From positions 1 to 64,000 of the IMG/VR virus record IMGVR_UViG_3300030102_001905: a stretch of DNA of 64,000 bases; one strand, 5' to 3'. The translations under genes and the position numbers were made by a program. Of the stretch, positions 6,924 to 53,986 are shown in pieces (the first letter of the stretch is position 1; the number at the start of each line of letters is the position of its first letter). The notes under the pieces were generated by a model that ran no database searches, was not told where the DNA came from, and was given only the letters and a program-made list of their open reading frames with translations. The stretch comes from a virus.

Positions 6924-6954
6924 TTTGTAAACTTAAAAAATAAAACTAATTTTG
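6924..6954 (+). promoter_or_regulatory. Bacteroidota-type sigma-A promoter candidate (TTTG-N19-TAATTTTG)
   Basis: TTTG at 6924-6927, a 19-nt spacer, then TAATTTTG at 6947-6954 match the published Bacteroides/Flavobacterium consensus TTTG-N19-21-TAnnTTTG. It sits in the 59-nt gap before the 1080-aa ORF, 4 nt from its ATG. Confidence 0.35.
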
Positions 6955-6958
6955 AACT

Positions 6959-9900: not shown

Positions 9901-10201
9901 TGCAGATTATACTATACCTGATGGTTTAGTTAATACTGCAGAATACAGAATCATAAAAGCTGGAACTGGAGATTATAAAATAAACTATACTGTAAATAGA
10001 TATGTACCATATGATCCTAATGCTGCACAAGGCACAACAGGAATATATGTACCCGAAACAGCAACTGCACCTGTAGATTTTTCATTAGGTTTACCTGGTG
10101 TAGATAGACAAGTAAAAGAACTACAATCTTATTTTGAAGGCATACGTAATTCAAATAGACTTGCCAAGAAAAAAGATACAGAGCAATACGGAGAGAGATA
10201 A
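6959..10201 (+). CDS. Large hypothetical virion protein (1080 aa)
   Basis: Uninterrupted ORF. Its stop overlaps the ATG of the giant ORF (TAATG at 10199-10203), implying translational coupling. No recognisable motif. Confidence 0.85.
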   Translation: MATYIKGADTYLPEITPFTPDFKFLSAVLDTRTDKYDANFQATNDLYNKVVYADLSRQDTKDRRDQYAETIAPQIQQISGLDLSLQQNVDQAKSVFAPFYDDDLTVKDIVYTKQYRDEMAYANRLLDNPDQVQREKYWETGIRKMQYEMDDFINGSESAALSAPLPKYIEDADLNELAQQILSEMDPPLKMKMDRFATDEDGNVQTDFIITEQNGRLVTGAALNIIKNRLLDDPRVQRAYYADAFVKSRDFAAAGMNAGQFNTVDQGQQAWADETISRINALNEQRTQETIKEVKKLDDANVRWSNYKANNGVVPDSDEAEAIEEQLSVAEQTQQALDDMLNINQEARTPSKSVQGSLNKAYNLLMNYNIMDDMQKAATDFAARDQEYTIRENRFALAEKEFKYDLALERARAANALNLEALKQKNRLDLAAAKGELMQVDPLASILTKPGVEVGDGSSTVVAVDDDGEISPNTDMVLLNQQQFQNEDNKIHNNQVNGILESLQILDPKGNTAAQDQTYQLKGSDGNVLMIGGVPLEGNIETLRNLLTQANTNEEDGSVISYINREIVDQVYDIQADRVKDTKQVTMNDPNVTLSEDQRTQYDDLYNAFFGLNGIETQRNTLAVHTKKINDLTLQAYDLMESEALAESKGKNNINLLTQAGFPRIVDANGSVLSKEEYTNLVIQGVENGTIENPDLYGYDSGTGNKNYKVHAYTTQYYEFGPQKTYQYDSQGKPVMEIDRSAVANDVNAIYDQMYNMLNQARTGAKGDIPTATYNSLRYGADQNPSDAISMPTYTYPINPLAGLDPNARAEMVNLFNQLNTFDKKGQVYGILPGDLDNVDVEDLLTKNPLAVRALELYKEDLATYLNDPKQSRTDKIAPIATLKYKPVYGPAGEAVKTTAGYQIIFSPEWLASKKAGTTDAPVGAFTTAEIRQLQGLDDESETSAGISIVFEQRLDNNTKGTNNSYYSFVESDILASENGFADYTIPDGLVNTAEYRIIKAGTGDYKINYTVNRYVPYDPNAAQGTTGIYVPETATAPVDFSLGLPGVDRQVKELQSYFEGIRNSNRLAKKKDTEQYGER

Positions 10202-31998: not shown

Positions 31999-32409
31999 AT
32001 GGAAAAGTACATATACAAAGCTAAGTTGGTCAGAGTTGTTGACGGTGATACTGTTGACGCTATGATAGATTTAGGTTTTGATACTTGGATAAAGAAAAGA
32101 ATTAGATTTCACGGAGTAGATACTTGGGAGTGTAGGACGAAGAACTTAGAAGAGAAGAAGAAAGGCTTAGCAGCAAAGGCACGAACTAAAGAATTACTAT
32201 CAGATGTATCAGAAAAGAAGATGTTCTTCCGAATTAGATCTTATGGCACAGGTAAATATGGTAGAGTGCTAGCAGAGATCTTTATACTGAATGATCAGGG
32301 TATAGAGATAGACGTGTGTAAAACTTTAATAGAGGAAGGACATGCATATGTATACCACGGGGGTAAGAAACAAACGCTTGTCCCTCCTAATAGAGCAGCA
32401 GGTCTTTAA
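31999..32409 (+). CDS. Staphylococcal nuclease (SNase/thermonuclease)-like nuclease (136 aa)
   Basis: VRVVDGDTVDA...IRFHGVDTWE...GKYGRVLAEI...EEGHAY matches SNase motifs (DGDT, RL.GIDAPE, D.YGR.LA). No signal peptide. The 3' end overlaps the nrdA 3' end by 4 nt (convergent). Confidence 0.7.
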   Translation: MEKYIYKAKLVRVVDGDTVDAMIDLGFDTWIKKRIRFHGVDTWECRTKNLEEKKKGLAAKARTKELLSDVSEKKMFFRIRSYGTGKYGRVLAEIFILNDQGIEIDVCKTLIEEGHAYVYHGGKKQTLVPPNRAAGL

Positions 32410-34031
32410 CCTTCACAACTTGCACAATCCAATATATTTCTAGAGAATGCTTGAGCTGAGCTTTGACTGAATTGATAGTACAAAGTTTTTACACCTTCTT
32501 CATAAGCATATATATAAAGAGCATTTATATCTTTTGCTGGTACTGATGGATGTATCATCAAGTTTAGTGACTGTGACTGATCAATATACTTCTGTCTTTG
32601 TGCCGCCTGAAGAACTAACTCTTTTGGTGTTATTTCTACAAATGACTTAAACACTGCTTTAGTTGGAAAGTCTAGATGCTGTACAGATCCATCTTTCTTT
32701 AATATACTATCCCAGGTCTTCTTGTTATTTAAACCATACTTTTCTAACTCACATTCTAAAAATGGATTCTTGTATATAGTTTTAGACTTTGCAAGATCCT
32801 TGATAAAGTAATTAGACTTGATTGGTTCAATACCCATTGACACAGCACCATGTATAAATGAACTAGATTTAGTAGGTGCTATAGCCATCAGTGTGGTGTT
32901 TGCAAAACCTTCACGTAAGGATCTATAACCTCTGTGTTCATATAACCATCTAGATGCAGCATCTGATGTTTCTTTTAGGTGTTTAAATATATGATTGTTT
33001 AACTGCTTAGCCGCAAGAGATTCAAACTCAATTAGCTTTGACTGAAACAAACTATGATATCCTAACACTCCTAAACCAATTGCTCTATGATCCTTTGCAA
33101 AGTTATAAGCTCTTTTAAGGCCTGCTTTTACTTCAGCCTTCTTAATGAATTCATCCATAACAGCATTAAGGAAGAATACATAAGTTTCTATTGCATCAGT
33201 CTTTATAATATCATCCCAGTGTAATAGGTTGATAGAACCAAGACAACAAACAAAAGAGTTATAAGTATCTGTAGGCAATTGAATCTCAGAGCATAAATTA
33301 GATGCAGTGATCTCCATACCTATTTCTTTATAAGGACTATTGTCATTAGAGTTATCTTTAAACATTATATATGGAAATCCAAACTCACTTCTTCTTTGAA
33401 TAACTTTGGCCCATATCTTACGTTTATCTTTATCTCCAGACCTCATCTGCTCCATCCAGTTATTAGTTACGGTAACACCATACTGCAAGTTTTGTATTGG
33501 GTTTCCCTCAGTACCAATATCTAAGAACTCCATGATATCTGGGTGCTCTAAAGGTAAGTATGCAGCACAAGCACCACGTCTAGCTTCAGATTGTTTACAC
33601 ACATCAACAACTGTATCATATATTCTGGCATAGTGTACAGGTCCATCTGCATGTCCTCCTGTTGATATTACAGATCCTCTAGGTCTTATATTACCTAAGT
33701 AGCAACTAGTACCACCGCCATACTTAGACATCATACCAATCTCACGCCCAGCATTTAATATGCTATCTAAGTTATCATCTATATTTGATCCGTAACAACT
33801 GATAGGTAAACCTTTTTGTTTACCAAAGTTTATCCAAACAGGTGTAGATAAACTATAGAAACCTCTAGACATGTAGTCTTCAAACTTTTGTGCAAAGCCC
33901 GGCATGTGTAAATACTTCTCTGCAGTATTTGCTATGTCTTTTATTCTTTGTTCTGGTTCCTCTGATATATATCCTCTTGATAAAAATTTACGGCTATCTT
34001 CATTTAGCCAATAGTATTTACTATATTCCAT
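32406..34031 (-). CDS. nrdA: Ribonucleotide reductase class I alpha subunit, short form without ATP-cone (541 aa)
   Basis: Active-site NLCSEIQLP, an APTKSSS loop, and a C-terminal redox-shuttle Cys pair (DCASCEG). It is paired with a ferritin-like beta subunit immediately downstream. Confidence 0.85.
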   Translation of the reverse strand: MEYSKYYWLNEDSRKFLSRGYISEEPEQRIKDIANTAEKYLHMPGFAQKFEDYMSRGFYSLSTPVWINFGKQKGLPISCYGSNIDDNLDSILNAGREIGMMSKYGGGTSCYLGNIRPRGSVISTGGHADGPVHYARIYDTVVDVCKQSEARRGACAAYLPLEHPDIMEFLDIGTEGNPIQNLQYGVTVTNNWMEQMRSGDKDKRKIWAKVIQRRSEFGFPYIMFKDNSNDNSPYKEIGMEITASNLCSEIQLPTDTYNSFVCCLGSINLLHWDDIIKTDAIETYVFFLNAVMDEFIKKAEVKAGLKRAYNFAKDHRAIGLGVLGYHSLFQSKLIEFESLAAKQLNNHIFKHLKETSDAASRWLYEHRGYRSLREGFANTTLMAIAPTKSSSFIHGAVSMGIEPIKSNYFIKDLAKSKTIYKNPFLECELEKYGLNNKKTWDSILKKDGSVQHLDFPTKAVFKSFVEITPKELVLQAAQRQKYIDQSQSLNLMIHPSVPAKDINALYIYAYEEGVKTLYYQFSQSSAQAFSRNILDCASCEG

Positions 34032-34042
34032 TTATTTTGGTT

Positions 34043-35023
34043 TTAAAATAAGTCATCAACTGTGATGCTTTTACTCTTTTTATTATAATCTACAGACTTC
34101 TTATAAAAGAAATCTCCTTCTTTGGTAGATGTAATTTCAACATCAAACCATTCAGTTACTTTTAATGCTTCACTATCCACATCAAAGATGGGAGACATTC
34201 CAATCTTTACAAGTGAATTATTAAATCTATTCTTGATAAAATTGTAAATAGTATACTTTGGTAAGAATGGTAGTTCACCACTCTCAAATATCCAATCAAG
34301 AATACCACATTCAGCACTGTAAGCCTTCCTACATGCAGAATATACTAACTCCTCAAAATCTTCATCAAACCACTCTGGGTTCTCTTTCTTAATTATATTG
34401 ATGAGCTCAGCACCAAAGTTACCATGTATCTCTTCTTCTTTACTAGTAGCTTCAACTACATTAGAGATACCCTTAAGTACATTCTTTTCTTTGTTAAAAC
34501 TCATCATGATTAAGAACTGACTAAACAAACTAACATGTTCTATGAAGAGTGAGAACAATAAAACAGATTTAGTGTACATTTTATTGTCTCTAGATCTTGT
34601 ACCGTCTAAGTACTTTTTTAAATACTTAATTCTATTTGCAATAGCTGGTACTTCAACTACATTCTCAAATTCTTTTTCTAGCCCAAGAATCCTAAGTAGT
34701 CTTGCATATGCATCTTTGTGTCTTACTTCTGACTCAGCAAAAGTAAAACCTACATCACCAATTTCTGTGATAGGCATGCGTTTATATAGATCACCCCAGA
34801 AAGTTTTTACATTAACTTCAATCTGTGCAATTGCTAACATTGTTTTCTTAATAACATCTTTCTCCCCAGGAGTAATATGAATCTTAAAATCTTGTACGTC
34901 TTCTGTAAAATTAAATTCTGTATCTATCCAATAAGAGTGTCTTATTGCATCTTTATATTCTAATAATTGTGGGTATTCATAAGGCAGAATATTTACTCTG
35001 GGTTTAAAAATGTTTTTGTTCAT
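34043..35023 (-). CDS. nrdB: Ribonucleotide reductase class I beta (radical-generating) subunit (326 aa)
   Basis: Di-metal ligand motifs ESEVRHKDAY (E-x2-H-x3-Y), FIEHVSLF and EEEIHGNFG (E-x2-H). The candidate first ligand lies in IAQIEVNV (Glu rather than Asp). Confidence 0.85.
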   Translation of the reverse strand: MNKNIFKPRVNILPYEYPQLLEYKDAIRHSYWIDTEFNFTEDVQDFKIHITPGEKDVIKKTMLAIAQIEVNVKTFWGDLYKRMPITEIGDVGFTFAESEVRHKDAYARLLRILGLEKEFENVVEVPAIANRIKYLKKYLDGTRSRDNKMYTKSVLLFSLFIEHVSLFSQFLIMMSFNKEKNVLKGISNVVEATSKEEEIHGNFGAELINIIKKENPEWFDEDFEELVYSACRKAYSAECGILDWIFESGELPFLPKYTIYNFIKNRFNNSLVKIGMSPIFDVDSEALKVTEWFDVEITSTKEGDFFYKKSVDYNKKSKSITVDDLF

Positions 35024-38624: not shown

Positions 38625-41600
38625 ATGAGTGTATATACACAAGAAGTCTTAGGACTCTTAAAGAGAAATAAAAAGAAGATCAAACTTGATAGAATTAGGG
38701 ATCATTTTGAGTTTGGTAAGCTGTACAGAAACAGTTCCTTAAATACGGGGGCTGCTTATAATCCAACTATGGAGCCCTTTGTTATTAAATGGGGAGACTT
38801 CAAGTGTGCTACAGAAGAAGGTATGGTTAGACAAGACCCTACTGGAACAGAAGAACGTCATATCACTATGTGGACTGATCCCGTCTTTCAAGGTGAGTGT
38901 CAAACAGCTACTATTACTAAAACAATTATATCACAGAATATAGCAGGAAATGAAATTAATATTGCTGGTGATTTAGATGTAGATAATAACTTAAATGTTG
39001 ATGGTAATGCACTTATTGATTTGCAATTAACAGCAGGCTCAGCAAATATTCTAGATCTTACAGAAGACCGCATTGTCATAGTAGGACCTAATGGAGAACT
39101 AGAAGATGATGGTAATCTTACTTTTAATGGATCATTCTTTAATATAGGTCAAGGTAACTTTACTGTGCAAGTAAGCACAGGTAATACTCAAATTGTTGGA
39201 ACTTTAGATGTTGATAGTCAAGCTACTCTTGCTAGTGCAAATGTAGAAGATCTAACTGAAGATAGAATAGTTATTGTAGGTCCAAATGGTGAGTTAGAAG
39301 ATGATGCTAACTTCACAATGGATGGAACTACTTTTACAGCAAATGTGAATGTAGTACATGGTACTGATGTCCCTGGAGGTACTCCAGCTGAGACAACAAC
39401 CATAAACTCTAATTTAAAACTAGAAGGCCCTGTATATGATTCATTAGGTAATATAGGTAGCCTTAACAAAGTACTTGTTGGTTTAGCTGATGGTAGAGTA
39501 AAATGGCAAGATGATGACGTAGTAGAAGCACTTACATATGGTGCACTATGGCAAGGAGATCCAACAAACTACAAAGTAGAATTACCTATTGGTACTGCAG
39601 GCCAGATTCTTATTTCTGATGGTACTACTTTTTCATGGCAAGATGATCCTTATGTAGATGGTAATGGTACACTATACAGATTACCTTTATGGACTCCTGA
39701 TGGAGATTCATTAGGAGATTCTCTTTTAATACAAGATGGAGATGTAAATACTCCAGCCACCCAAGTGCAAAATGATGGTATGCTAAAGAATGTTGGCATA
39801 GTTAAATTAGATAGTGTTGCACAAGATGATACACTTACTCAAGTACTTGTTAGAGATACAGGTAATGCAAACGAAGTAAAATTTAGAGATGCAGCATCAA
39901 TCAAACCTGCAGTTGGTTTTGATACATTAGATATGACACCTGATGGCTGGGCATCTACTGATGGTAACTTTAATGCATACGTAAAACTGGATGACTCAAC
40001 TACACCTATTAAGAATATCAAAGATATGAATTGGCTTGTTGATGGTGATAGAGTTCTTGTAATTGCAGAAAATGTCAAGACTGGTAGTTTGCTAGCAGAT
40101 AATGTTCTTAGATTCCCAACATGGGGAACTGGACAGCAAGTATTTAATCAAACATCTTGGAATCAAGCAAGTATAGGTACTGGTTGGACTGGGGCAATTG
40201 ATAATGGATATCAGACCTCAACTCTTCTATACGGAGAAAAGCTTAAGATTAGGGGTGAAATGTATGATACTCCCGGTGTTTCAGATAGACAAATGAACTG
40301 GGATGCATGCTGTAAAATATATTCTAATAATGCATGTCCTGTTGCAAATAATTTAAACTTTACTATAGATGAAGATACAGGATTATCAAATACTGTAAAC
40401 GTTTCAGATGATGGATATGGTGGTTATGGTTTAACATATACTGTTATTCAGCAACCAAATAATGCAAAAACATTTACTTTTGATACTGCTACTGGTGGAT
40501 TTACACTTACACCAGATCTTAATTTCTTTGGTACAATAACATTTACTTATCAAGCAAATGATGGATACTGTGATAGTAACGTAGCTACAGTAACTGTAAC
40601 AGTTAATGCTGTTGATGATGCTCCAGAATGGACATCTACCGACCCTGTAACTGCTAATACATATCCTAACCTAACAGGTGGTGATACATGGACATACAAC
40701 TGGACAGTTGCAGATGCAGATACACCTTGTGGTAGTTTAACATTCCCATCTCAGACTATTCCAAGCTGGTTAACCTTTACTAATAACGGTAACTGTACTG
40801 GAACATTAACTGGTACTTTTCCTAATACTGGTGGTAATTTCCCAGTTCAATTAAATGTTAGTGATGGAACAAGTACAGCCTCACAATCATTTACAATTGG
40901 TGGTTTAGCTGTAACAAAAGATACATATTTTGTATTTTGGAGTGATACTTCTGGATCTATGAATACTACTATTAGTGTAATGTCTAGAATGGTAAGTGCT
41001 GCAGAAGTTAAGGTACAAGCTACTACTATTTCAGGTTCTAGTGTTACTTTAACAAATGGTGCTAATACTAGAAAAATAAATGATTCTACAGGTACATGTT
41101 CTAAAGCATTCTTAGCTATTCATGATGGAATGGAAGTAACTGCAGGTGGAAGTGGTGTACCAAGTGGAACTACTGTAGTAAGTGGTGGTGGTACACAAAA
41201 CCTTACACTAAGTAACAGTATTACTAGTACATCTGGTACAGTCCTTACATTTAAGCCAACACAAGCTATGAAAGATGCAGACTATGCTGACACAACTAAT
41301 TTAAGAAACTTGTTACAAGATTTCTATGCAACAGGTGGTACTAAAGGAAGTGGTAATACTGATCCGGCAACTAATGGTCAAGACTTTTATGACTCTCATA
41401 TATATTGGTGCCATGACCCTGTTGAAAGACAAATTGATCATTTAGGAAATAGAGGTCAAGGTAATACAATTGGTCCAAGTGGATATTTTCCTGATGCTGA
41501 TGGAGTAGTTGTAATGGGATTTGCTGATGAGTCTAGTGATTATGGATTAGCAGGAACCGGTGGTGGTACTTGGGCTGACCGTGCAAGTAGTACAGTAGGT

Positions 41601-41966
41601 AACATTACTACAGATGTTAATACTGTAAAGAACTTTATAAATGCTCTAGAAACAGCTGCTGGAAATAATACTATATATAGAGGTATTTTCTTTAATGTTC
41701 TTGGAGGTTATACTCCTGGTCACGATAATCTTGAACCTTTATTAGGGCCAACAGGATTGAACGCTACAGGTGGTGTAATTGCAAATGGATTTGGATATCC
41801 TCCTGCAGCATCAGCTTATGATCCTGTAAATGATACATTATATCCAGAGTCACACGGGTCTCCAACTAGAATTAAATATAGACCTGATATGACAGATGGT
41901 GCTTCTCAATCTTATTACTATAATGAGGTTAGAGCAGGGCTTAACAGTGTAGGATTTAGCTTGTAG
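38625..41966 (+). CDS. Large tail fibre / adhesin (1113 aa) with tandem repeats, a cadherin/VCBS-like segment and a C-terminal vWA-like MIDAS motif
   Basis: The ~64-aa repeats are LDLTEDRIVIVGPNGELEDDGNLTF (nt ~39051-39125) and VEDLTEDRIVIVGPNGELEDDANFTM (nt ~39243-39320). VTVTVNAVDDAPEW lies at nt ~40600-40631. YFVFWSDTSGSM (DTSGS = nt 40944-40958) and VVVMGFADES also occur. Confidence 0.6.
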   Translation: MSVYTQEVLGLLKRNKKKIKLDRIRDHFEFGKLYRNSSLNTGAAYNPTMEPFVIKWGDFKCATEEGMVRQDPTGTEERHITMWTDPVFQGECQTATITKTIISQNIAGNEINIAGDLDVDNNLNVDGNALIDLQLTAGSANILDLTEDRIVIVGPNGELEDDGNLTFNGSFFNIGQGNFTVQVSTGNTQIVGTLDVDSQATLASANVEDLTEDRIVIVGPNGELEDDANFTMDGTTFTANVNVVHGTDVPGGTPAETTTINSNLKLEGPVYDSLGNIGSLNKVLVGLADGRVKWQDDDVVEALTYGALWQGDPTNYKVELPIGTAGQILISDGTTFSWQDDPYVDGNGTLYRLPLWTPDGDSLGDSLLIQDGDVNTPATQVQNDGMLKNVGIVKLDSVAQDDTLTQVLVRDTGNANEVKFRDAASIKPAVGFDTLDMTPDGWASTDGNFNAYVKLDDSTTPIKNIKDMNWLVDGDRVLVIAENVKTGSLLADNVLRFPTWGTGQQVFNQTSWNQASIGTGWTGAIDNGYQTSTLLYGEKLKIRGEMYDTPGVSDRQMNWDACCKIYSNNACPVANNLNFTIDEDTGLSNTVNVSDDGYGGYGLTYTVIQQPNNAKTFTFDTATGGFTLTPDLNFFGTITFTYQANDGYCDSNVATVTVTVNAVDDAPEWTSTDPVTANTYPNLTGGDTWTYNWTVADADTPCGSLTFPSQTIPSWLTFTNNGNCTGTLTGTFPNTGGNFPVQLNVSDGTSTASQSFTIGGLAVTKDTYFVFWSDTSGSMNTTISVMSRMVSAAEVKVQATTISGSSVTLTNGANTRKINDSTGTCSKAFLAIHDGMEVTAGGSGVPSGTTVVSGGGTQNLTLSNSITSTSGTVLTFKPTQAMKDADYADTTNLRNLLQDFYATGGTKGSGNTDPATNGQDFYDSHIYWCHDPVERQIDHLGNRGQGNTIGPSGYFPDADGVVVMGFADESSDYGLAGTGGGTWADRASSTVGNITTDVNTVKNFINALETAAGNNTIYRGIFFNVLGGYTPGHDNLEPLLGPTGLNATGGVIANGFGYPPAASAYDPVNDTLYPESHGSPTRIKYRPDMTDGASQSYYYNEVRAGLNSVGFSL

Positions 41967-42421: not shown

Positions 42422-43339
42422 CTATCTACCCATGTAAACATCTTGTAATAGTCTATTGTAGTTGATTTCAGTATCAACCTCTACTGGCTCAAATGTTTCT
42501 ACTTCAACATCAATACCATGCTCTGTATCAGCATTGGTAATACCTAAATCTTCATTATCAAAGTTTAGTATCCATTCTTCATATGGTTTTACAGTAGAAA
42601 GATTGAGAATCTCAGCTGTTATAAAATCATGAAAGTTTTTCTGATCTACCATCCAATCTCTTGGGTGAGCTTTTTTCAATGCATGCGTAACATGATTGTA
42701 GTAAGCCCAGGCAGTTCCTGTCCCTCCTTTATACTTAAAAGAAGGCTTATCTATTTCTTTCTTGATGCAGGTTACTTGTTGTGAGTCAAGCATGTCTTCA
42801 TCTATAAACAACCTTCCTGTCAACTCTGACATTTGTGTAGTAGATAAATCAATCTGCTTCATTGTTTCCTTATCACTAATTAACCTTTTATAATACTTCT
42901 CAGCATTTTTAATCTGACTAGATATATGATTTCTTACATCAGTATCCGCAGCTCCAGTATGTTTTCTTTTATAGTGGTACATGTCTCCTGCACACATACC
43001 ATTACTACATACTTTTACATATGCTCCAATTGTACAATTAAACATTGTACTCTTGTCATATGAATTCACCCAGGTAAACATCATACCCAACTCTTTCTCA
43101 TCATTAATCTGTTGATCTGTTGATGTAGGTTGAATATAATATACTCCCTGTGCAACATTAGCATTCATATTAGTTCTATACTTTTCTTCTAGAACTTTGA
43201 ATCCACTATTCTTAAGTAGGTCTAATGTATTGTCTATCACTGTTTTATGTGATATTACTGTATAACTCTTACCGTGATTTGGTAAAGGTGCATTTTCCAG
43301 ATATGCTCTGGTTGTATTTATTGGTTTTTTATATCCCAT
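42422..43339 (-). CDS. DUF932-family phage/plasmid protein (305 aa)
   Basis: FTWVNSYDKSTMFNCTIGAYVKVCSNGMC resembles the NSHDGS...G..R.VCSNG core of DUF932. Confidence 0.55.
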   Translation of the reverse strand: MGYKKPINTTRAYLENAPLPNHGKSYTVISHKTVIDNTLDLLKNSGFKVLEEKYRTNMNANVAQGVYYIQPTSTDQQINDEKELGMMFTWVNSYDKSTMFNCTIGAYVKVCSNGMCAGDMYHYKRKHTGAADTDVRNHISSQIKNAEKYYKRLISDKETMKQIDLSTTQMSELTGRLFIDEDMLDSQQVTCIKKEIDKPSFKYKGGTGTAWAYYNHVTHALKKAHPRDWMVDQKNFHDFITAEILNLSTVKPYEEWILNFDNEDLGITNADTEHGIDVEVETFEPVEVDTEINYNRLLQDVYMGR

Positions 43340-43390: not shown

Positions 43391-44224
43391 TTAAAATATA
43401 TATCTAATGGTATCTAATGGAAAAAATTCTTTGTATATGTCTTTGAATTCATTTAGGAGTCTGGTTTTATGCTGTAAAGGATAACGCATAACACCTGATG
43501 CATTTTTTATTTCAGAAGACCTTCTCATTAGTTCTTTTGCAAGCTCTGATGCTCTGGCCATCTGTTGTTTATGATTTGTGAGTGCTATCACCTCACATTT
43601 ATTTATCCCGGCTATTTCTTTTACCTTACTAAACAGTTCATAATATAGCTCTTTCCAATAAAAATGAAATACAAGCGGGCTATAGTTAATATGAACTTGC
43701 CATCCTAAATCCTTGAGACGGTTTACATCTTCAATACGGCTCAATATATTTTGCATTTTAGGCTCAAGTATATTTGAATACTTCTGAGGCATAAGGCTTA
43801 CACGTACTCTAGGTGGTTTATTAAAATGATTTACATCTAATTTTAGTAATCCTGGATACTTAGTAGCCATAGTACTGTTAAGCCGGGGGTGATCATCATA
43901 TCTTTTTAGATAATCAATAAGTGGTTCTGGCATATGTCTTTGCATAAGAACTAAGTCTGAGTTACATGCAACATCTACCATAGTATATATAGGGTCCTGC
44001 TGATCCGGTTCTTTATAAAAAGTTTTTTCCCATTCAACTACAGACTGAAAAATCTGATCAACATTCTTATTTACAAAAACTCTACGTCCATTATAACGAG
44101 ACATATAACAATAAGTGTTTACACAGCCGCCCATGCAACCATAGATTACATTGGGGGCTATGCAGTTTGCACTATTGTTATTGGGTTTTGTAATTAAGGT
44201 TTTAGTATTCTGTACCTTAATCAT
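43391..44224 (-). CDS. Spore-photoproduct-lyase-like radical SAM family protein with atypical Cys spacing (277 aa)
   Basis: NVIYGCMGGCVNTYCYMSR resembles SplB-type GCMGHCHYCY, but the spacing is C-x3-C-x4-C rather than C-x3-C-x2-C. Confidence 0.45.
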   Translation of the reverse strand: MIKVQNTKTLITKPNNNSANCIAPNVIYGCMGGCVNTYCYMSRYNGRRVFVNKNVDQIFQSVVEWEKTFYKEPDQQDPIYTMVDVACNSDLVLMQRHMPEPLIDYLKRYDDHPRLNSTMATKYPGLLKLDVNHFNKPPRVRVSLMPQKYSNILEPKMQNILSRIEDVNRLKDLGWQVHINYSPLVFHFYWKELYYELFSKVKEIAGINKCEVIALTNHKQQMARASELAKELMRRSSEIKNASGVMRYPLQHKTRLLNEFKDIYKEFFPLDTIRYIF

Positions 44225-44615
44225 TTATTATTGGTTTATTTATCACATATGCAGCCTCTGTGCCAGCTATTATCTCTACTCCGTTTACTGTAATATCTTT
44301 TACATCTACTTCATAGAGAGAATACTGTGTGGTAATCTCATCTCCAGACTTAACATCTTTAATTAATTGAAGATGCAGAATTCCACAATCTATATCTCTT
44401 GATTCTTTACAACCAATGAGTTTTGCATTAGGCTCTTTACCATGATTAATAAAACCACCCAATGGAGTTCTAACGTAACGGTTTTCAAATCTTTGGTCAT
44501 ATACATGGGTTACACCTAAATCTGTTCCAGAAGCAATATCTTCTGTAGCAAATAGGCCTAACCCATCTATAACTGATTGTCTAACCGTAACTGAAGGTGG
44601 TAACGGTCTATACAT
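44217..44615 (-). CDS. Minimal SET-domain protein, putative lysine methyltransferase (132 aa)
   Basis: IDGLGLFATEDIASGTDLG (GxG SAM pocket), GGFINHGKEPNAKL (NH..PN) and SGDEITTQYSLY (catalytic Tyr region). The start overlaps the polB stop. Confidence 0.65.
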   Translation of the reverse strand: MYRPLPPSVTVRQSVIDGLGLFATEDIASGTDLGVTHVYDQRFENRYVRTPLGGFINHGKEPNAKLIGCKESRDIDCGILHLQLIKDVKSGDEITTQYSLYEVDVKDITVNGVEIIAGTEAAYVINKPIIND

Positions 44616-47127: not shown

Positions 47128-47706
47128 TTATTTTTCCAAAGATATGGAATCATTTTTTAATAATTGATAAATTATAGAATTATTATCAACTAATGTTTCT
47201 TTAACTAGGTCAGGTGGACTACAAACTTCATATACTTCTTCAAGTAGTTCCTTTTTTACACCAAGAAAATCTGCATAGTTCTCATGCACATCTGGAGGAG
47301 AAAGAAAACCTTGTATATAGTCTGCAATCTTACCTTTGTCACCAAAGAAGTCTATTATGTGGATCTTACTATCTAAACTAAACTTTGAGTATCTGCCTTG
47401 TACAAATGCATTAAAATCATGTTTATATTGTGTAAAATCAAATATGACCAAGTGTCTACCGTCATCTAGCTCTACGGAGCCTTCATACAATGGATGTCTT
47501 TCTAAAGTTTTATGACTGAAAAGTTTAAACTTATTTACATTATTGTATTTATATTCACACAGAAATCTAGTACTTTCAAAAGTATACATATTCTCCCAAG
47601 CAACATAAGTTTCTTGAGGAACATAGGTTATGCCTTTCTGCAACCTTAATAAAGGATACAGAAAGACTTTACTCTTTTGAAAATAGTCTGTGTAAACACC
47701 CTTCAT
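47128..47706 (-). CDS. Hypothetical protein (192 aa)
   Basis: Track ORF, tightly packed, no motif. Confidence 0.7.
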   Translation of the reverse strand: MKGVYTDYFQKSKVFLYPLLRLQKGITYVPQETYVAWENMYTFESTRFLCEYKYNNVNKFKLFSHKTLERHPLYEGSVELDDGRHLVIFDFTQYKHDFNAFVQGRYSKFSLDSKIHIIDFFGDKGKIADYIQGFLSPPDVHENYADFLGVKKELLEEVYEVCSPPDLVKETLVDNNSIIYQLLKNDSISLEK

Positions 47707-47707: not shown

Positions 47708-48694
47708 CTATAAGTTAATCTTATTTACCAAGAAATCATAGGGTAAAGAGTAGTTTTTCTCCTCAAAATGATACTTAGCAGTCTTTAAAGTGCCTCCTAA
47801 CCCCTCTGCCCAAGCAGCTAAGGTTGTTTGAGATACATCAAAGACATATACCTGTTTATACTGATCTATCACTATAAACTTAAATTCAATTGTATATTCA
47901 TCCGCATCATCCCCTAGAAAATCATACACTAGTTTACTATATATAGCAGCTTGTAACCAGTAATTATAAAAGTCAACTGTCTCAGTAAAATCTGCAATAG
48001 TTTTACTAGTTGTTTTTAAATCACATATAGTTGCTATTTTCTTGTCTGTATCTATCTTTAAGTAATCTACATAACCATGTAATCCAAAAGGGTAACCATC
48101 CATTTCAGAACGTAAATAATGTTCTTTATAAGTTGTAATAGGATCCAAATCAAAGTCCGTTGAGGTCTCTGCAAATATAGACATTACATCATCATTATTT
48201 TTTAGATATGTAATATCTTCTGAACATTTGTCATAAGTTGCACGATCTATTACATCTACATTATTATTAGATAAGAATGCCCAATAAGGTTCATTATCCT
48301 CAGTTCTGATTTTTGCTATTCTTTGTTCATCTGTCTTCAGAGATTGATATAAGTTTAGATCTTTTAAAGAATCTAAAATTATAAAGTCTTCACAGTCAAC
48401 TAAAGTTTTAGCATCAGTATGTAAAGACATATCTTTTAAGACTTTCCTTACATTATCACTTGGTGTCTTACCTGGTACCAGGTTAAACTTCTTATCAAAG
48501 TTCTCAGGCTCAAACAATAAACAGTGTATAAGCTTACCTTCAATAAGATGCTTATCTGTTCTTAGTTCTCTATCCTGTAAAATATAATCTTTGTAAAACA
48601 AAGAGGGTGAAAAAATTAATTTATTAAGAGAAGAGTAGCTGAAGTTAAACGCTTCAGCATAAAACTCTTCTTCTTTCTGATGATCTCTATTCAT
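47708..48694 (-). CDS. PD-(D/E)XK (RecB/Cas4-like) exonuclease (328 aa)
   Basis: HGYVDYLKID...KIATICDLKTTSK (D...D-x-K) and LQAAIYSKL (QxxxY). Confidence 0.7.
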   Translation of the reverse strand: MNRDHQKEEEFYAEAFNFSYSSLNKLIFSPSLFYKDYILQDRELRTDKHLIEGKLIHCLLFEPENFDKKFNLVPGKTPSDNVRKVLKDMSLHTDAKTLVDCEDFIILDSLKDLNLYQSLKTDEQRIAKIRTEDNEPYWAFLSNNNVDVIDRATYDKCSEDITYLKNNDDVMSIFAETSTDFDLDPITTYKEHYLRSEMDGYPFGLHGYVDYLKIDTDKKIATICDLKTTSKTIADFTETVDFYNYWLQAAIYSKLVYDFLGDDADEYTIEFKFIVIDQYKQVYVFDVSQTTLAAWAEGLGGTLKTAKYHFEEKNYSLPYDFLVNKINL

Positions 48695-49835
48695 CTATAA
48701 CTTGCTTTTCAAATTTTTCATTTAATTTTAAATCATCCAAATCTACTGCAAAGACCTGAGCAGATTTTCCAACATACTGACCTAAGAAATCTTTCATAAG
48801 CTTTTCTCTTGTCCTATCTACTGCAAATTTAGTTAATTTTCCGTCTTTTGCAAGCTTTTCTATGTATGCATTGTAAGACCAGATACCACTATTACTATGG
48901 CCACCTTCATAATCTTTCAATTGCTGACGCATAGCTTTAACATTTACACTATTCCAGTGATCAGTATCTTTAAACCAATCATAGTGCCACCAATAAATAC
49001 CAGAAACAACGTCAAATGATTTGTTAATATTACAATTAGCAATCATTTCTACCGCCATATTTCTGTTATCTCTGTCACTACTATTGATCATCTTTTCTAT
49101 TTGCTCATACTGAGTATTATCTATTACTGCCAGATCTTCATCAATAATATCAAGCAATTGCCCATCCATTATTAATTTTTTAGAGCCAACCATATCTTTA
49201 AATGAGTTTACCTCACTTGGATTAACAGAAAAAATTCTATTAGTTTCATATGGTTTTTTAGCAGCTGAAACTGGTTCTAATACATTATCACAAAACTTAT
49301 CATAGTCATCACTTTTACTACCATAATAATATCCCGGTCTATGGATTAAGAACATTGCATCTCTTTCAAGCTCTAATATATCTCTACACTTTAATAAAGC
49401 AGTTTCTCCTAATAAGTTATTCTCTTTCCATGTTTGAAATACTTTATAAAGATCTTTAAATGATATAGCAGTGTTCCAATTATTATGGAATAAACTTCCT
49501 AAAAATTTATGTGATATAACATGATAATCTGCTTTGTCTTTGTTTCTAACGACTTTCAAATTAAACTTATCCTTAAGTAGATCTACCTTTTGTCTAGGTA
49601 AATTTAATTTTGGATATCTATATAATGACTTATCTTGTAAATCAATAGTATCTTTATTAGCTACTATATCACAATACTTTAAGTCTTCAGCTGTTATATT
49701 CCAGCTATTTGTGTTTGCTATAAATATACCTCCGTCTATTAACTCAATGCCGGTGCTAATGACATAGTTGCCATTAGCATCCATAGCAATTGAATTTTCT
49801 TCAAGAGATATCTTAATTTCATAATACTTTTTCAT
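48687..49835 (-). CDS. Hypothetical protein (382 aa), paralogue of the adjacent 342-aa ORF
   Basis: It shares three collinear motifs with the neighbouring ORF: LP..(K/P)V....K...(V/I)(V/T).N....AD..(V/I)I(S/T)H; Q(I/V)..M.N...D.R..A; and KD..HW. Confidence 0.7.
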   Translation of the reverse strand: MKKYYEIKISLEENSIAMDANGNYVISTGIELIDGGIFIANTNSWNITAEDLKYCDIVANKDTIDLQDKSLYRYPKLNLPRQKVDLLKDKFNLKVVRNKDKADYHVISHKFLGSLFHNNWNTAISFKDLYKVFQTWKENNLLGETALLKCRDILELERDAMFLIHRPGYYYGSKSDDYDKFCDNVLEPVSAAKKPYETNRIFSVNPSEVNSFKDMVGSKKLIMDGQLLDIIDEDLAVIDNTQYEQIEKMINSSDRDNRNMAVEMIANCNINKSFDVVSGIYWWHYDWFKDTDHWNSVNVKAMRQQLKDYEGGHSNSGIWSYNAYIEKLAKDGKLTKFAVDRTREKLMKDFLGQYVGKSAQVFAVDLDDLKLNEKFEKQVIDE

Positions 49836-50860
49836 ATTAAATATTTTTGATATTCTTTTTTAACTGATACTTTGAATACATATAGTTCTCTATTATGGAT
49901 AGTTATATCTTTACGAACTATAGGTTCTAGATATTTGAAGCTTATCTTATTAAGATGACCTTCTTCTTCCATCCATTGTATCATAGATTCTGCATTCTGG
50001 TTATAATAAAACTCCCACCTGCTAGCTGTCATCCAGTGGTTGAGATCTTTATTATGGTGATTATAATGTATACTACCTAACTCTTGAGTCAACTTCCACA
50101 TCAAATGATGATTTGTTGTATAGTCAAGTGTAGTTAATAACTGCGTAGCAACTTCTCTATCATCTCCCCCTGCATTCCACATTCTAATAACCTGGTCAAC
50201 AACATCTTCATTTAGAGGCTGTCTTGTTGCAGATGTGTGTAGTACAGTTTCAATTGACACAGTGCTTTTATTACCAACATATATTTCATATGCTAGATTA
50301 AGTGCAAGACCTGTAATAGCCCAAGTATCATAGAGACTATCTTCAACATCTAAAGCATAATAACGCATGTTATTTGTGATCTTTGGAGTTATAATCACAT
50401 GACGCCCACAATTCTGAATCATTTGATTAAGACTTAAATTACTAGTAGGATCACCTGAAGTAGTTTCATAGTTCCAAAGTTTATACATCATTTTAGTTGT
50501 CTTAATTGTCTCACTATTTTCAAACTTGTCATCAAATTCATCATGAGTTATAATTAAGTCTGCCTGTGTATAATCATTAGTTACAGTAATCTTATGTTCT
50601 TTTAGTGCTGCCTTTATCTTATCATTAGATACCGGGCTACTAGGAAGAACAAAAGCTTTCTTCTTATTTATAAATGTTTGATCCGTTTCAGTTGGCTTTG
50701 CAATTATCTCACGGATATTACTATATGTTGTTTCATCTTGTGTAACTAATACATCTTCAACATTTGATCCAGCAATGACCCCATAAATAGGGTCACTTGC
50801 CAAATCAAAATAATCCAATGCATCAGTATCATATTTCTGAAATACTGATTTACTTGCCAT
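49832..50860 (-). CDS. Hypothetical protein (342 aa), paralogue of the adjacent 382-aa ORF
   Basis: See the previous entry. The segment KKAFVLPSSPVSNDKIKAALKEHKITVTNDYTQADLIITH is loosely BRCT-like in pattern. Confidence 0.7.
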   Translation of the reverse strand: MASKSVFQKYDTDALDYFDLASDPIYGVIAGSNVEDVLVTQDETTYSNIREIIAKPTETDQTFINKKKAFVLPSSPVSNDKIKAALKEHKITVTNDYTQADLIITHDEFDDKFENSETIKTTKMMYKLWNYETTSGDPTSNLSLNQMIQNCGRHVIITPKITNNMRYYALDVEDSLYDTWAITGLALNLAYEIYVGNKSTVSIETVLHTSATRQPLNEDVVDQVIRMWNAGGDDREVATQLLTTLDYTTNHHLMWKLTQELGSIHYNHHNKDLNHWMTASRWEFYYNQNAESMIQWMEEEGHLNKISFKYLEPIVRKDITIHNRELYVFKVSVKKEYQKYLI

Positions 50861-50861
50861 A

Positions 50862-52133
50862 TTACTTCATTGTCATTTGAATGATCTCAGGGATCATCAT
50901 TAGTTTATTAAACTTCTTTTTATTACCATTAAAGATTGTTCTGACAATTAAATACTTAAGATCATTAGTAAAATAATCTGCAGTACATAAAGTCTTCAAT
51001 CTATCAGTAATCTTCTGTGTTACTGTATTCTCTTTAGAGTATACCACAGCATAGTTACCAAGCCTTGTAGCTAGAGTAGAAGCAATATCTGCACGGTAAG
51101 TATCATCCTTACCAATACAACTTCTTAACTCATTAAGAATGTATTGCTCATTATCATGAGTCAATAAATCTACAGGTGTTACAAGCTTGTCTAACTTATT
51201 ATTAATAAAGGTGGTAAACATAGATGCAAAAGCATCACCAACACTACCTTCACCAATCATTTGGATCATAGGTAGACTGTCTTCAAACTTTTCAAAGCTA
51301 GAAATAGCATTAAAGAAAGTTGTGATGGATCTTGCATTTGTTTCTTGTGTCACAAGCTCTGGGTGTAGCAACAAGAAGTTAATACATCTTGTATCTATAC
51401 CTGCTCCTTCTGCCCATTGTGCCCAAACATTTACATCAAACTTAAGATTTGCTGTAATATATCTAGTCTTCTGTGCTGAGTCAACACTATTTACCATATA
51501 GTCTCCATTATCTGGATTTGCTGTGAGAATAATATGCCAGTCTTTTGGAAGAGTCCATGAGATATAAGTTTGTCTATCTATCAGTTCCATAACTGCTTGG
51601 ATAAATCTTGTATCTGCACGGTTCCAATCATCTAGTAATAGAATGCCTCCTTCTTTCTTATCAGCAATCCATTCTGGTGCACAATAAGACATTCTGTTCT
51701 TACCTGTCATTTTGTATCCATTCTTTAGATACTCTTGTACGGCAAGTTCATCTACCCACTGACCAACCTTTTTGGTTACTGTTGTGTTTAGATTAGCTAG
51801 ACTAGCACCAGCTGCTCTTTGAGTTGCTGTTACCATGGCTAAGTTATCAGGTGTGTTTTTTACAGTGACCTGCTTCTCTTTATACATTTGGAATTGACGA
51901 ACAGGAAAACCTACAAGATCACCTATCTCCTCAATCTGAGCAAGGTTAAGCTTTACAAAGTTTAAGTTATTATCCTTTGCTAGCTCAACAATTGTAGATG
52001 TTTTACCAATACCTGATTCACCTACAACTTCTACTGATACTGGGCCTTTACCCTGCTCTTGTAAAAATCTATTATTCTCAATAATGTGGTTAATAAAACC
52101 TTTTAGTTCCGTTACATTTAAATTTACTTGCAT
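50862..52133 (-). CDS. MoxR-like AAA+ ATPase (423 aa)
   Basis: Walker A VGESGIGKTS, Walker B GGILLLDDWNRAD, sensor-1-like IILTANPDNG. It sits immediately downstream of a vWA partner. Confidence 0.75.
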   Translation of the reverse strand: MQVNLNVTELKGFINHIIENNRFLQEQGKGPVSVEVVGESGIGKTSTIVELAKDNNLNFVKLNLAQIEEIGDLVGFPVRQFQMYKEKQVTVKNTPDNLAMVTATQRAAGASLANLNTTVTKKVGQWVDELAVQEYLKNGYKMTGKNRMSYCAPEWIADKKEGGILLLDDWNRADTRFIQAVMELIDRQTYISWTLPKDWHIILTANPDNGDYMVNSVDSAQKTRYITANLKFDVNVWAQWAEGAGIDTRCINFLLLHPELVTQETNARSITTFFNAISSFEKFEDSLPMIQMIGEGSVGDAFASMFTTFINNKLDKLVTPVDLLTHDNEQYILNELRSCIGKDDTYRADIASTLATRLGNYAVVYSKENTVTQKITDRLKTLCTADYFTNDLKYLIVRTIFNGNKKKFNKLMMIPEIIQMTMK

Positions 52134-52139
52134 TTTTAT

Positions 52140-53306
52140 TTAATTTAATTTTATTTTTAATCCTGGTAATTCATCATTTATACTAGAAACACTGCTATGT
52201 ACCCATAAGGTATTTTTTGGGCAGTCTTCTGGTGTATAAGCTTCACCATCTGTTAAGTATATAAGGGCAGTATATCTCCCCTTCTTTTCATTATAGTGAT
52301 CAATTACTGGTTGAAAACTAGTTCCACCACGACCATGTATCTCCCAATCTTTATTTGGATTAAACTCTTTAACACTTTTCAATTCAGTATCACACTGTGC
52401 TACTGTAATCTTATGTCCTGTTTTATGCATATGTGTAAGTTCACCAAAGAATTCCTTTAGCTCTTCACTATTTACAGATCCACTTGTGTCAACACCAACA
52501 AGGATGTGATTCTTAAATTTAATCTTAAGTCCTGGATTTGCTGAGTATCTTTTATTATACTTACGTCTCAGCTTTTTTGTATATACTACACTTGAGTTTC
52601 CTACAAATCTTCTTAAGTAACCTTTCCAATCAAACTTAGGTGGTTCTACATTTAAGAGTCTATTAATAAGCTCTGCTAGCTCACCAGGCACTGTACCATG
52701 TTTCTTCTGTGTTTGTTCAGCACTCTCTTTAATCTGATGTTCTATTTGCTTTTGTAATAGTTTCTTATCTGCTTCTGATAGATCTTCTATCTCATCCCAA
52801 CCTGGATGACAATAACAAGAGTTACCATCCATTTGACTCATCAAGTTATCTAAACTTGGACATGTACCATCTTCTCTAGCCTGTTGTAATAAATCATAAT
52901 ATGTTTTAGTACCGGCTCTCTCAGGAAGATTAAGTTCAGGAAAACTACCAAGCATCAGCCCGCCTTCAGGTAAATGATGATTTGCTATATACTGATTGAT
53001 CTCTAGATCTGCAGCTATATTAAATAACTTTTTATCACTATATAAATCTCTCATAATCATATGCCCGAAACTAATATGTAGTATTTCATGTTTTATAAGA
53101 CCATATCTATGATCTTCACTAAGCTCTGTAAAGAACTCAGGGTTTATAGATAATTGGACACCTATATTTCTTTTACTTACACCTGCAGTAGGTATAGTAG
53201 TAATGTACTCTTTATTAAGTCCAATCAAAAAGAGCCCGTAAAAGGGCTCAGAAAAAATTAATGTTTTAGTAGTTCTAGAAACTAACTCTTGAATATTATT
53301 TGTCAT
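52140..53306 (-). CDS. vWA-domain protein with an N-terminal HExxH metallopeptidase-like domain (DUF2201-like, 388 aa)
   Basis: KHEILHISFGH (HExxH). ILVGVDTSGSVNSEEL (MIDAS DxSxS). ALIYLTDGEAY. Confidence 0.7.
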   Translation of the reverse strand: MTNNIQELVSRTTKTLIFSEPFYGLFLIGLNKEYITTIPTAGVSKRNIGVQLSINPEFFTELSEDHRYGLIKHEILHISFGHMIMRDLYSDKKLFNIAADLEINQYIANHHLPEGGLMLGSFPELNLPERAGTKTYYDLLQQAREDGTCPSLDNLMSQMDGNSCYCHPGWDEIEDLSEADKKLLQKQIEHQIKESAEQTQKKHGTVPGELAELINRLLNVEPPKFDWKGYLRRFVGNSSVVYTKKLRRKYNKRYSANPGLKIKFKNHILVGVDTSGSVNSEELKEFFGELTHMHKTGHKITVAQCDTELKSVKEFNPNKDWEIHGRGGTSFQPVIDHYNEKKGRYTALIYLTDGEAYTPEDCPKNTLWVHSSVSSINDELPGLKIKLN

Positions 53307-53610
53307 ATCCCATATCTCTTAAAATTTTATAGTATACTTCTTCTGCTTCATATTCCTCCATATAAGCATGTATTTCCTTATTAGAGGGCAGATTAAATGT
53401 GAACTTTATTGCATCACAAAACTTTCTCCTGGGTTCAAAGACTAATGCTTTAGCCATTAATAGATCTACAATTTCTTTATCTGCAAATCCACTATTTTTA
53501 TATACTTCTACTGCTATAGCTTGGTCTTCTTCAATACCCATAAACATTTCTTTGAGTCTAAAAAACTCTTCAGCTGTAATTATTTTTCTTTTAAAATTCT
53601 TCTTTGTCAT
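53296..53610 (-). CDS. Hypothetical protein (104 aa)
   Basis: Track ORF. It overlaps both neighbours by a few codons. Confidence 0.65.
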   Translation of the reverse strand: MTKKNFKRKIITAEEFFRLKEMFMGIEEDQAIAVEVYKNSGFADKEIVDLLMAKALVFEPRRKFCDAIKFTFNLPSNKEIHAYMEEYEAEEVYYKILRDMGYDK

Positions 53611-53986
53611 TTTCTATTATTAATTCTATCCATACGCCTGGGTTCTTTTTATCATAAGAGTATTGTTCAAATGCTGGTATAATAAACTCAGCATTATCAT
53701 CTTCAATCCATCCATGCTTAACCATATCATCCTGTACTGTTTGTGCGGGATTAATATAATCAAACTTATGTCTTGTACCTCTTATAAACTCAAAACAAAT
53801 TTTTACTGGTAACTCTTGTTTTGCTACTTCACTTTTAAAATCATCTGCATATTTAGCATAATATTCTTTAGTAGCCTTTCTATAGTTAACTACAGCCTTG
53901 CTAGCAATAAAATATTTACCGGTCCATCTTCTACCATTCTTGCTACTAGGAACATTACCTGGTATGAACCATCTATGTTTATGCAT
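53591..53986 (-). CDS. RusA-like Holliday junction resolvase (131 aa)
   Basis: PGNVPSSKNGRR...ASKAVVNYRK and PVKICFEF...FDYINPAQTVQDDMVKHGWIEDDNAEFI parallel E. coli RusA PPSNNRYYR...SAEGQAYRD and PVKIRIEC...[27 protein letters not shown]. Confidence 0.55.
   Translation of the reverse strand: MHKHRWFIPGNVPSSKNGRRWTGKYFIASKAVVNYRKATKEYYAKYADDFKSEVAKQELPVKICFEFIRGTRHKFDYINPAQTVQDDMVKHGWIEDDNAEFIIPAFEQYSYDKKNPGVWIELIIENDKEEF

Follow-up and report, generated by a model that had tools for sequence, protein, structure and literature searches.

A MoxR-class ATPase and metallopeptidase-vWA pair shares a cassette with members of an unannotated protein family in a marine phage replication operon

The 64,000-nucleotide stretch analysed here (positions 1 to 64,000 of IMG/VR virus record IMGVR_UViG_3300030102_001905; hereafter the window) is AT-rich, at ~33% GC, with a strand skew that switches at ~42 kb. 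Between 42.4 and 62.8 kb, nearly every long open reading frame (ORF) lies on the minus strand. Judged from its sequence relatives, the window belongs to an uncultured, abundant marine phage lineage whose replication genes are related to those of the crAss-like phage phi14:2; no near-identical DNA was found among GenBank phages. An initial annotation had singled out five minus-strand ORFs at 47708-53306, within a phage replication module, as a candidate multi-component system. Both the ORFs and their setting are confirmed, and the block consists of two things side by side: a five-gene cassette, which begins with a small ORF upstream of the five, and an exonuclease of the replication backbone.

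In transcription order, the cassette opens with g104 (53296..53610, minus strand, as are all genes of the block), a 104-aa ORF whose 3' end overlaps the start of the next gene by 11 nt. That gene (52140..53306) encodes a 388-aa protein in which a predicted HExxH zincin-like metallopeptidase is fused to a vWA domain with a metal ion-dependent adhesion site (MIDAS), a homologue of N4 gp25. It is followed by a predicted MoxR/midasin-class (AAA_5) AAA+ ATPase of 423 aa (50862..52133), the homologue of N4 gp24, and by two full-length members of a new family: unkA (49832..50860; 342 aa) and its more diverged tandem paralog unkB (48687..49835; 382 aa). The cassette thus extends from 53610 down to 48687. 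Its upstream edge is marked by a RusA-like Holliday-junction resolvase (53591..53986; phrog_1682, 1.2e-19; Pfam RusA, 6e-4). Downstream lie the 328-aa nuclease (47708..48694), a RecB-family PD-(D/E)XK exonuclease of RecE/DUF3799-like type, and g192 (47128..47706), a backbone gene with no family match that is homologous to phi14:2 gp058.

The overlapping or abutting starts and stops described initially are present, with junctions of +6, +1, -4 and -8 nt along vWA/ATPase/unkA/unkB/nuclease. This tight packing is not peculiar to the five ORFs, as a run of 10 genes, of which the primase (start 54965) is the first and g138 (end 46699) the last, has gaps of ≤12 nt throughout. The sole convincing terminator-like hairpin in 18 kb, at 55015-54986 on the minus strand (13-bp stem, 6 GC pairs, T-rich tail), sits in the 62-nt gap between g224, a putative single-stranded DNA-binding protein (SSB), and the primase; it may mark a transcript boundary or an attenuator upstream of the ten-gene packed block. 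A sigma-70 promoter scan performed at chance (101 sites versus 96±10 expected), so transcription units are not definable from promoters. That the five ORFs are genuine genes maintained by purifying selection follows from their conservation in at least 88 loci and from ratios of nonsynonymous to synonymous substitution (dN/dS) of 0.04-0.23 in close pairs (unkA 0.22, unkB 0.23, ATPase 0.04; other genes 0.007-0.10).

The vWA/peptidase protein matches Pfam DUF2201_N (1.6e-18; 67.7 bits, cut-off 23.2) and DUF2201 (3.5e-15; 56.6 bits, cut-off 26.4). The second match spans residues 269-372 of 388, the vWA domain being the protein's end; Pfam detects no C-terminal effector domain, and the sole extra domain is the N-terminal peptidase. 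In PHROGs, the protein matches phrog_1314 at 8e-66, whose label 'HNH endonuclease' disagrees with the Pfam domains. HExxH and the MIDAS motifs DxSGS, GGT and TDGE show almost no variation among 78 clade members. Between lineages with as little as 27% identity, H73, E74, H77, H82 and N96/A98/D100/N104 are still invariant, and H82 and the N96/A98/D100/N104 motif provide candidate third zinc ligands. MIDAS residues D273/S275/G276/S277, G327-G328-T329 and D353 are likewise invariant across 7 lineages and ~78 clade members, giving the domain the DxSxS, downstream T and downstream D of a functional MIDAS. Weak profile matches reach minigluzincin MJ1213 (0.011) and the integrin alpha-X I-domain (0.03).

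The ATPase matches phrog_1297 'ATPase' at 5.7e-35 and Pfam AAA_5 at 6.7e-4 (20.1 bits, below the cut-off of 22), and its tblastn matches include phage genes annotated 'MoxR-like ATPase'. Its best relatives of solved structure are the midasin AAA domains (1.2e-5 with the single sequence, 6.4e-19 with the profile), and the profile also reaches MoxR structure 2r44 at 2e-3 and McrB at 7e-3, which places the protein in the MoxR/midasin/dynein-related clade. Of 81 sequences, 77-81 carry the motifs GESGIGKTS (Walker A), LLLDDWNRAD (Walker B), NP and AQKTRY unchanged, and other lineages share the invariant residues G41, G43, K44, A173, N206, R224 and R268. Walker A, Walker B with its adjoining NRA, the sensor-1 N and the conserved arginines of the clade are all intact. 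An insertion of ~45 aa (residues ~88-130), located between the two Walker motifs, is specific to the clade; three homologues from more distant members of the lineage that were compared (L093, L091 and L088) lack it. The Pfam domains of the partner, the invariant motifs and the midasin profile match agree with the initial assignment of the two proteins as a MoxR-class ATPase and an HExxH/vWA-MIDAS protein. Since the peptidase and MIDAS residues are retained at 27% identity, both of those activities would be maintained by selection, which appears to act on the ATPase function as well.

Searches of PHROGs, NCBIfam, PADLOC and Pfam, the last even at E≤10, gave no match for unkA or unkB. Marine metagenomes contain hundreds of homologues of each, none functionally named in any source. 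The initial annotation had described the 342- and 382-aa proteins as paralogous, a relationship that direct comparison fails to recover (BLASTP E 1.2; hhalign probability 6.8%; non-significant HMM-versus-sequence cross-matches, HMM denoting hidden Markov model). An exhaustive HMM search with the unkA profile gave 245 cluster representatives, including a diverse group of 360-399 aa, and an alignment of 32 sequences from this group (A3) is intermediate between the two. A3 aligns with the unkA clade profile (A1) at an hhalign probability of 100% (E 2.7e-39, 310 columns) and with the unkB clade profile (A2) at 98.4% (E 9e-15, 296 columns), and the A3 HMM matches the window proteins at 7e-41 (unkA) and 4e-13 (unkB). 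As both are matched by this intermediate family, profile comparison upholds unkA and unkB as ancient paralogs of one unannotated family, visible only transitively. tblastn of unkA, unkB and the A3 consensus against 50,697 phage records returned nothing, even at E≤1.

AlphaFold2 models of unkA (pLDDT 85, pTM 0.71) and unkB (pLDDT 87) give no significant whole-fold match to the PDB. Partial Foldseek matches cover the PARP1 BRCT domain (probability 0.85-0.89 for unkA and 0.82 for unkB; 40-58 columns, E 0.2-0.4), and both models show further partial BRCT matches to 53BP1, MCPH1 and RFC1, each individually non-significant; a phage NAD+ ligase BRCT is also among the partial matches. The family motif KGDKVYvLPG..lp..riKE.lK.iGA..T.Di.kAT.iiG reads, to us, like the first half of a (LigA-type) BRCT. 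The C-terminal helical region carries the motif ML.S.D..N..lA.E.L.NCD. Weak matches to repeat proteins come from the A3 profile, whose best PDB match is a 'HEAT repeat domain-containing protein' (E 0.032), and from the unkB model, which matches COPI-gamma, importin and designed armadillo proteins at E 0.07-0.2 (ARM/HEAT). Tentatively, unkA may begin with a beta region and continue through a BRCT-like segment (~65-110, as in unkB) and a variable middle to a helical C-domain of HEAT-like type. A search of BFVD matched unkA over its full length to four uncharacterised proteins of metagenomic phages, with E between 5e-7 and 4e-6: A0A8S5TKB2 and A0A8S5TL70 (both Podoviridae sp. ctz6O13), A0A8S5QMV2 (CrAss-like virus sp. 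ctYsL76) and A0A6J5LXR8.

g104 has no Pfam or PHROG match and, taken alone, matches the A3 HMM at E 0.014, a weak value. Its clade profile aligns with A3 at an hhalign probability of 56% (E 1e-4, 88 columns), over the same region as in A1 and A2. In the distant relatives, small ORFs directly upstream of the vWA gene occupy the position of g104 (L087_143, L088_136, L091_131, L093_137 and L090_218/265) and match the A3 helical C-domain at E 1e-10 to 4e-4. A joint profile of g104 with L087_143, L088_136, L091_131 and L093_137 aligns with A3 positions 230-344 at a probability of 96.8% (E 2.5e-10). g104, with which the cassette opens, is thus probably a paralog in the unkA/unkB family that consists of the helical domain alone.

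Gene order was compared in the 80 closest viral contigs and in 8 more distant loci (L087-L094), judged over the stretch that each covers. The 80 closest come from marine metagenomes, the longest of them measuring 92-116 kb, and contigs of the lineage as a whole reach 92-120 kb. All 80 closest contigs are colinear in the order DnaB, g182, AAA_24, g224, primase, RusA, g104, vWA, ATPase, unkA, unkB, nuclease, g192, g138 and DNA polymerase. The distant loci present a small helical ORF, vWA, ATPase, one or more family members, nuclease, g192, mostly g138, and then DNA polymerase, with DUF932 following the polymerase in 2 of them; g192 succeeds the nuclease in all relatives. The synteny that the initial annotation proposed to survey therefore holds in every relative found. 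ATPase identity to the window is 53-66% in L088, L091 and L093. Each distant locus has one family member after the ATPase, except L087 with two, and the relatives with a single full-length member indicate that the unkA/unkB tandem duplication is lineage-specific.

Among the 80 contigs, protein identity to the window descends from ~91% (DnaB) and ~90% (ATPase, among the most conserved genes of the block) through ~79% (vWA) and ~68% (nuclease) to ~51% (unkA) and ~41% (unkB, the fastest-diverging gene of the block). For unkA and unkB, the dN/dS values indicate purifying selection that is relaxed or partly diversifying. Proteins that are the fastest-evolving of the block yet under purifying selection fit the role of specificity subunits. 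In L004 and L005, unkA is merely 90-91% identical, though other proteins are at 98-100% (ATPase 99-100%; nuclease 100% in L004), which suggests localised recombination or accelerated change in that gene.

The boundary of the cassette is defined by Cellulophaga phage phi14:2 (Crassvirales), the closest cultured relative of the replication backbone. phi14:2 has DNA polymerase, RusA (50% identity), AAA_24, primase, uracil-DNA glycosylase (UDG), superfamily 2 (SF2) helicase and ribonucleotide reductase (RNR) in common with the window. Its RusA gene (28554-28931) is followed by a 92-aa ORF, the nuclease homologue gp057 (E 8e-11) and the g192 homologue gp058 (E 6e-9), and no vWA, ATPase or unkA/unkB family gene is found anywhere in its genome. 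A related-locus search from gp057 returned solely gp057 itself. Set against this backbone, the genes g104, vWA, ATPase, unkA and unkB act together as a single insertion/deletion unit, and the presence of nuclease and g192 beside RusA without the cassette assigns the nuclease to the backbone. The five-gene system of the initial annotation is accordingly redrawn: the vWA protein, ATPase and two paralogs stay together and are joined by the ORF at 53296-53610, and the nuclease drops out.

Homing-endonuclease ORFs break into the best-conserved genes in several relatives. In L087, the ATPase gene is split by a GIY-YIG+NUMOD1 ORF and the polymerase gene by a LAGLIDADG ORF (6833-7648 and 14052-14864). 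The vWA gene is split by a LAGLIDADG ORF in L088 (5955-6788) and also in L089; in L090, a GIY-YIG ORF (4038-4787) lies just upstream of the vWA gene, and in Escherichia phage Pollock (L001), the ATPase gene is split by an HNH ORF (4529-5089). These insertions fit a pair that is as conserved a target as the polymerase. L087 also carries a RuvC-like resolvase ORF (3432-3878) directly behind the primase, the place that RusA takes in the window; one Holliday-junction resolvase seems to have been replaced by a non-orthologous one.

The nuclease passes the Pfam cut-offs of both DUF3799 (2.3e-6; 28 bits, cut-off 26) and PDDEXK_1 (3.6e-5; 24.2 bits, cut-off 22), matches phrog_412 'exonuclease VIII' at 1.8e-17, and conserves across the clade the motifs GY[IV]D, DLK and QAAIY, corresponding to D, (D/E)xK and QxxxY; its designation as a PD-(D/E)XK nuclease was therefore correct. 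The operon also holds an AAA_24 (Sak4-like) ATPase, RusA, DnaB_C, UDG and DNA polymerase, and we read the acidic DDFDL tail of g224 as that of a putative SSB. Nuclease, AAA_24 ATPase, putative SSB and RusA together appear to be an ordinary phage recombination set. The motifs and this module are shared with RecE/lambda-Exo/DUF3799 exonucleases, although the window nuclease is a remote relative of RecE (NCBIfam 17.5 bits, cut-off 1269) and, unlike that type, has no adjacent canonical annealing protein.

The ATPase-vWA pair itself, whose role in a phage replication module the initial annotation had been unable to place, is already known in phages. A vWA homologue is present in 425 GenBank phage records, mostly N4-like phages, and Pollock carries its two homologues under the annotations 'N4 gp24-like ATPase' and 'N4 gp25-like metallopeptidase'. 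gp24 and gp25 are two of the 14 core genes of N4-like phages (Schitoviridae) and belong to the middle class (PMC4193335); both are listed without assigned function (PMC4193335, PMC2784036). The window proteins are homologous to them (vWA tblastn 27-30% identity over >90% of the length; HMM matches to both Pollock genes), and the two pairs are alike in being adjacent, lying among replication-class (middle) genes and carrying the same HExxH, MIDAS and Walker motifs. The window differs in the reversed order, vWA then ATPase, in the ~45-aa ATPase insertion, and in the bracketing family (g104, unkA and unkB), which is not detectable by similarity in N4-like phages.

Outside the window's lineage, the ATPase clade HMM matches the Pollock gp24-like fragment (1.7e-7) and genes of Moorella phage MTATph1 (1.3e-8), Alteromonas phage AD45-P1 (3.7e-9) and cyanophage S-TIM5 (3.4e-16), each beside a vWA gene. 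The context varies: the split ATPase, then vWA in Pollock; ATPase, vWA, a 353-aa ORF and a helicase in MTATph1; vWA, MoxR and a 669-aa ORF in AD45-P1, with the pair in the same order as in the window; and Hsp20, MoxR and vWA beside genes annotated virion structural in S-TIM5. No member of the unkA/unkB family was found beside the pair in any of these four phages. The 669-aa neighbour in AD45-P1 was considered as a fusion of two family paralogs and rejected (E 1.9). We found no functional study of a phage MoxR-vWA pair in the literature, and nothing relevant on crAss-like phages with MoxR or vWA. What is new at this locus is the accessory family, g104, unkA and unkB, and the revised boundary.

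With the gene identities, catalytic motifs, paralogy, cassette boundaries and co-occurrence in ~88 loci established here, the reading that we favour, at a little better than an even chance, is that the cassette encodes a remodel-and-cleave machine powered by ATP, whose adaptors or clients are specific to the lineage, and that the nuclease stands outside the unit. The mechanism is modelled on CbbQO, RavA-ViaA, NorQD and midasin with its MIDAS domain. The ATPase would form a ring, and the vWA MIDAS site would capture an acidic residue of a client protein; ATP hydrolysis would then remodel or extract the client, and the fused zinc peptidase would cleave it. The new-family proteins would act as client-selecting adaptors, or be the clients themselves, docking through their shared helical domain, and in the full-length forms the BRCT-like module could contact DNA-associated or phosphorylated partners. 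The AAA_5-class ATPase with a complete-MIDAS partner is common to the window and to CbbQ-CbbO, RavA-ViaA, NorQ-NorD, CoxD-CoxE and midasin/Rea1, and the likely shared logic, by analogy, is capture of an acidic residue by the MIDAS followed by ATP-driven remodelling. Unlike these cellular machines, which are without a zincin peptidase, the window pair includes one in its vWA protein, is phage-encoded and has no candidate metalloenzyme client adjoining.

The pair recurs in N4-like phages, where it is core, and in jumbo phages, cyanophages and abundant marine phages. This lineage supplies candidate partners for it, in a family that is always beside the pair, duplicated around it and gone with it, so the pair's function becomes experimentally testable. 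The family itself comprises at least 245 sequence clusters without Pfam, PHROGs or NCBIfam annotation, with structural relatives in gut crAss-like phages. The corrected boundary, with the nuclease out and the 104-aa ORF in, bears on experimental design.

Several points weigh against the remodel-and-cleave machine. The absence side of the co-occurrence is a single genome, phi14:2, and the family-bearing loci all belong to one broad lineage with a colinear replication module, so that adjacency may be a matter of inherited order and not of function. N4-like and other phages have the pair and no such family; it evidently works there on its own, so the family is no obligate partner of it. Support for the BRCT and HEAT assignments is weak (Foldseek E>0.07; PDB HMM E 0.032; Pfam nil), as it is for g104's own link to the family (E 0.014; hhalign 56%). 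A physical complex, the protease substrates, the adaptor role and expression alongside replication are inferred.

That same inherited order underlies an alternative that we consider unlikely, in which unkA, unkB and g104 are replication or recombination accessories, for example binding DNA ends or the replisome via the BRCT-like module, that work with the nuclease, polymerase and RusA and merely stand beside the pair. The module is colinear in every relative, and adjacency is then no independent evidence of a partnership; RusA and the exonuclease enclose these genes within an operon of DNA metabolism, and both models have partial BRCT-like matches (PARP1, RFC1, phage NAD+ ligase). However, phi14:2 keeps RusA, nuclease, g192, polymerase, primase and AAA_24 yet is without both family and pair, family members flank the pair on both sides, and the BRCT match is non-significant.

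A rather poor prospect is that the pair serves as a virion-assembly chaperone and maturation protease, with the paralogs as unrelated neighbours. This role was proposed for the same combination of MoxR and metallopeptidase-vWA proteins in group 2.2 jumbo phages by Iyer et al. 2021, by analogy with the Acidianus two-tailed virus, for whose MoxR/vWA proteins p618/p892 it has been shown (PMC7824862). The jumbo-phage pair, known from sequence analysis alone, resembles that of the window in combining MoxR with a vWA co-chaperone bearing an N-terminal metallopeptidase. The S-TIM5 pair beside Hsp20 and genes annotated virion structural would suit such a role, and two giant virion-type proteins encoded elsewhere in the window (4491 and 1894 aa) might need processing. 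The window pair, in contrast, is placed inside a replication/recombination operon with extra family partners and on the strand opposite the structural genes, and the N4 homologues are middle genes of the replication class (PMC4193335). An assembly role also leaves the repeated bracketing of the pair by one family unexplained.

More speculative, and to our minds a long shot, is a reading in which the cassette would be a 'ternary' MoxR-vWA machine whose BRCT/HEAT-like adaptors, together with a stand-alone HEAT-like subunit, recruit the AAA+ ring and zinc protease to DNA-bound or cross-linked proteins; host nucleoid or replisome proteins and defence nucleases could be targets. If true, this would be a bacterial-virus analogue of the SPRTN/Wss1 protease with the p97/Cdc48 ATPase, and the same logic would account for the N4 gp24/gp25 core genes.

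The initial annotation had pointed to the NTP-dependent conflict systems of Kaur et al. 2020 (PMC7159879). On that model the five genes would make up one conflict or anti-defence system, with the pair as regulatory core, the paralogs as sensors and the nuclease as effector, a reading that the analysis did not bear out and that we regard as very improbable. The genes are indeed contiguous and co-oriented, with overlapping stops and starts, and syntenic in all relatives. Like the ternary systems of Kaur et al., they combine a MoxR + vWA core with an extra conserved, duplicated protein that has a fast-diverging helical region, and the fast paralogs with their variable middle recall the VMAP-M variable region in concept (PMC7159879). 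However, the third component in the window is without detectable VMAP, iSTAND, FtsH or beta-propeller similarity (fold searches with the unkA and unkB models gave no STAND, FtsH or propeller fold; VMAP was not compared by profile), the C-terminal effector that those systems carry on the vWA protein is lacking, and they are found in multicellular bacteria whereas the window system is in a phage. PADLOC gave no real defence match, its sole match being a 15.7-bit P-loop. The nuclease is a further obstacle: with g192, it lies beside RusA in phi14:2 without the other members, the pair occurs without it in N4-like phages, the Moorella phage, AD45-P1 and S-TIM5, and it is of the RecE/DUF3799 type typical of phage recombination, in a tightly packed run of ten genes that includes primase and RusA.

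Characterised MoxR-vWA pairs often mature metalloenzymes, and the window encodes both large and small RNR subunits. These points would favour the initial suggestion that the pair, in the manner of NorQD, CobST or CbbQO, is a metal-insertion or activation chaperone, for example for the class I RNR at 32406-35023. RNR maturation by the pair is rejected on phyletic grounds, since N4 has gp24/gp25 and no rnr (PMC2784036) and phi14:2 has RNR and no pair, and with the invariant HExxH domain unexplained and the RNR genes ~15 kb away in a separate block, metal loading merits scarcely any credence.

Other genes of the window lie outside the cassette. Directly downstream of the DNA polymerase gene, a 132-aa ORF at 44217-44615 (-) has a SET (lysine methyltransferase) domain (Pfam 1.4e-6, above cut-off), which is unusual, the domain being uncommon in phage. 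It is followed by a spore-photoproduct-lyase-like (radical SAM) ORF at 43391-44224 (-; Pfam SPL 2.7e-15) and a DUF932 ORF at 42422-43339 (-; 8.5e-17), which together close the replication operon. On the plus strand, two giant ORFs of 4491 aa (10201-23676) and 1894 aa (23683-29367) have no Pfam or PHROG family bar a weak PDDEXK_1 in the second. Residues 3471-4042 of the 4491-aa ORF match the 2180-aa virion protein gp077 of phi14:2 (E 1e-5), which we take to be the crAss-like virion RNA polymerase, and the 1894-aa ORF matches gp076; these matches suggest a phage distantly related to the crAss-like group that packages a polymerase in its virion. A 1113-aa ORF at 38625-41966 (+) with bacterial Ig (Big_9)/cadherin-like domains probably encodes a receptor-binding or tail protein, and a 557-aa ORF at 184-1857 (+) with an endolysin-like domain is probably a virion-associated lysin.

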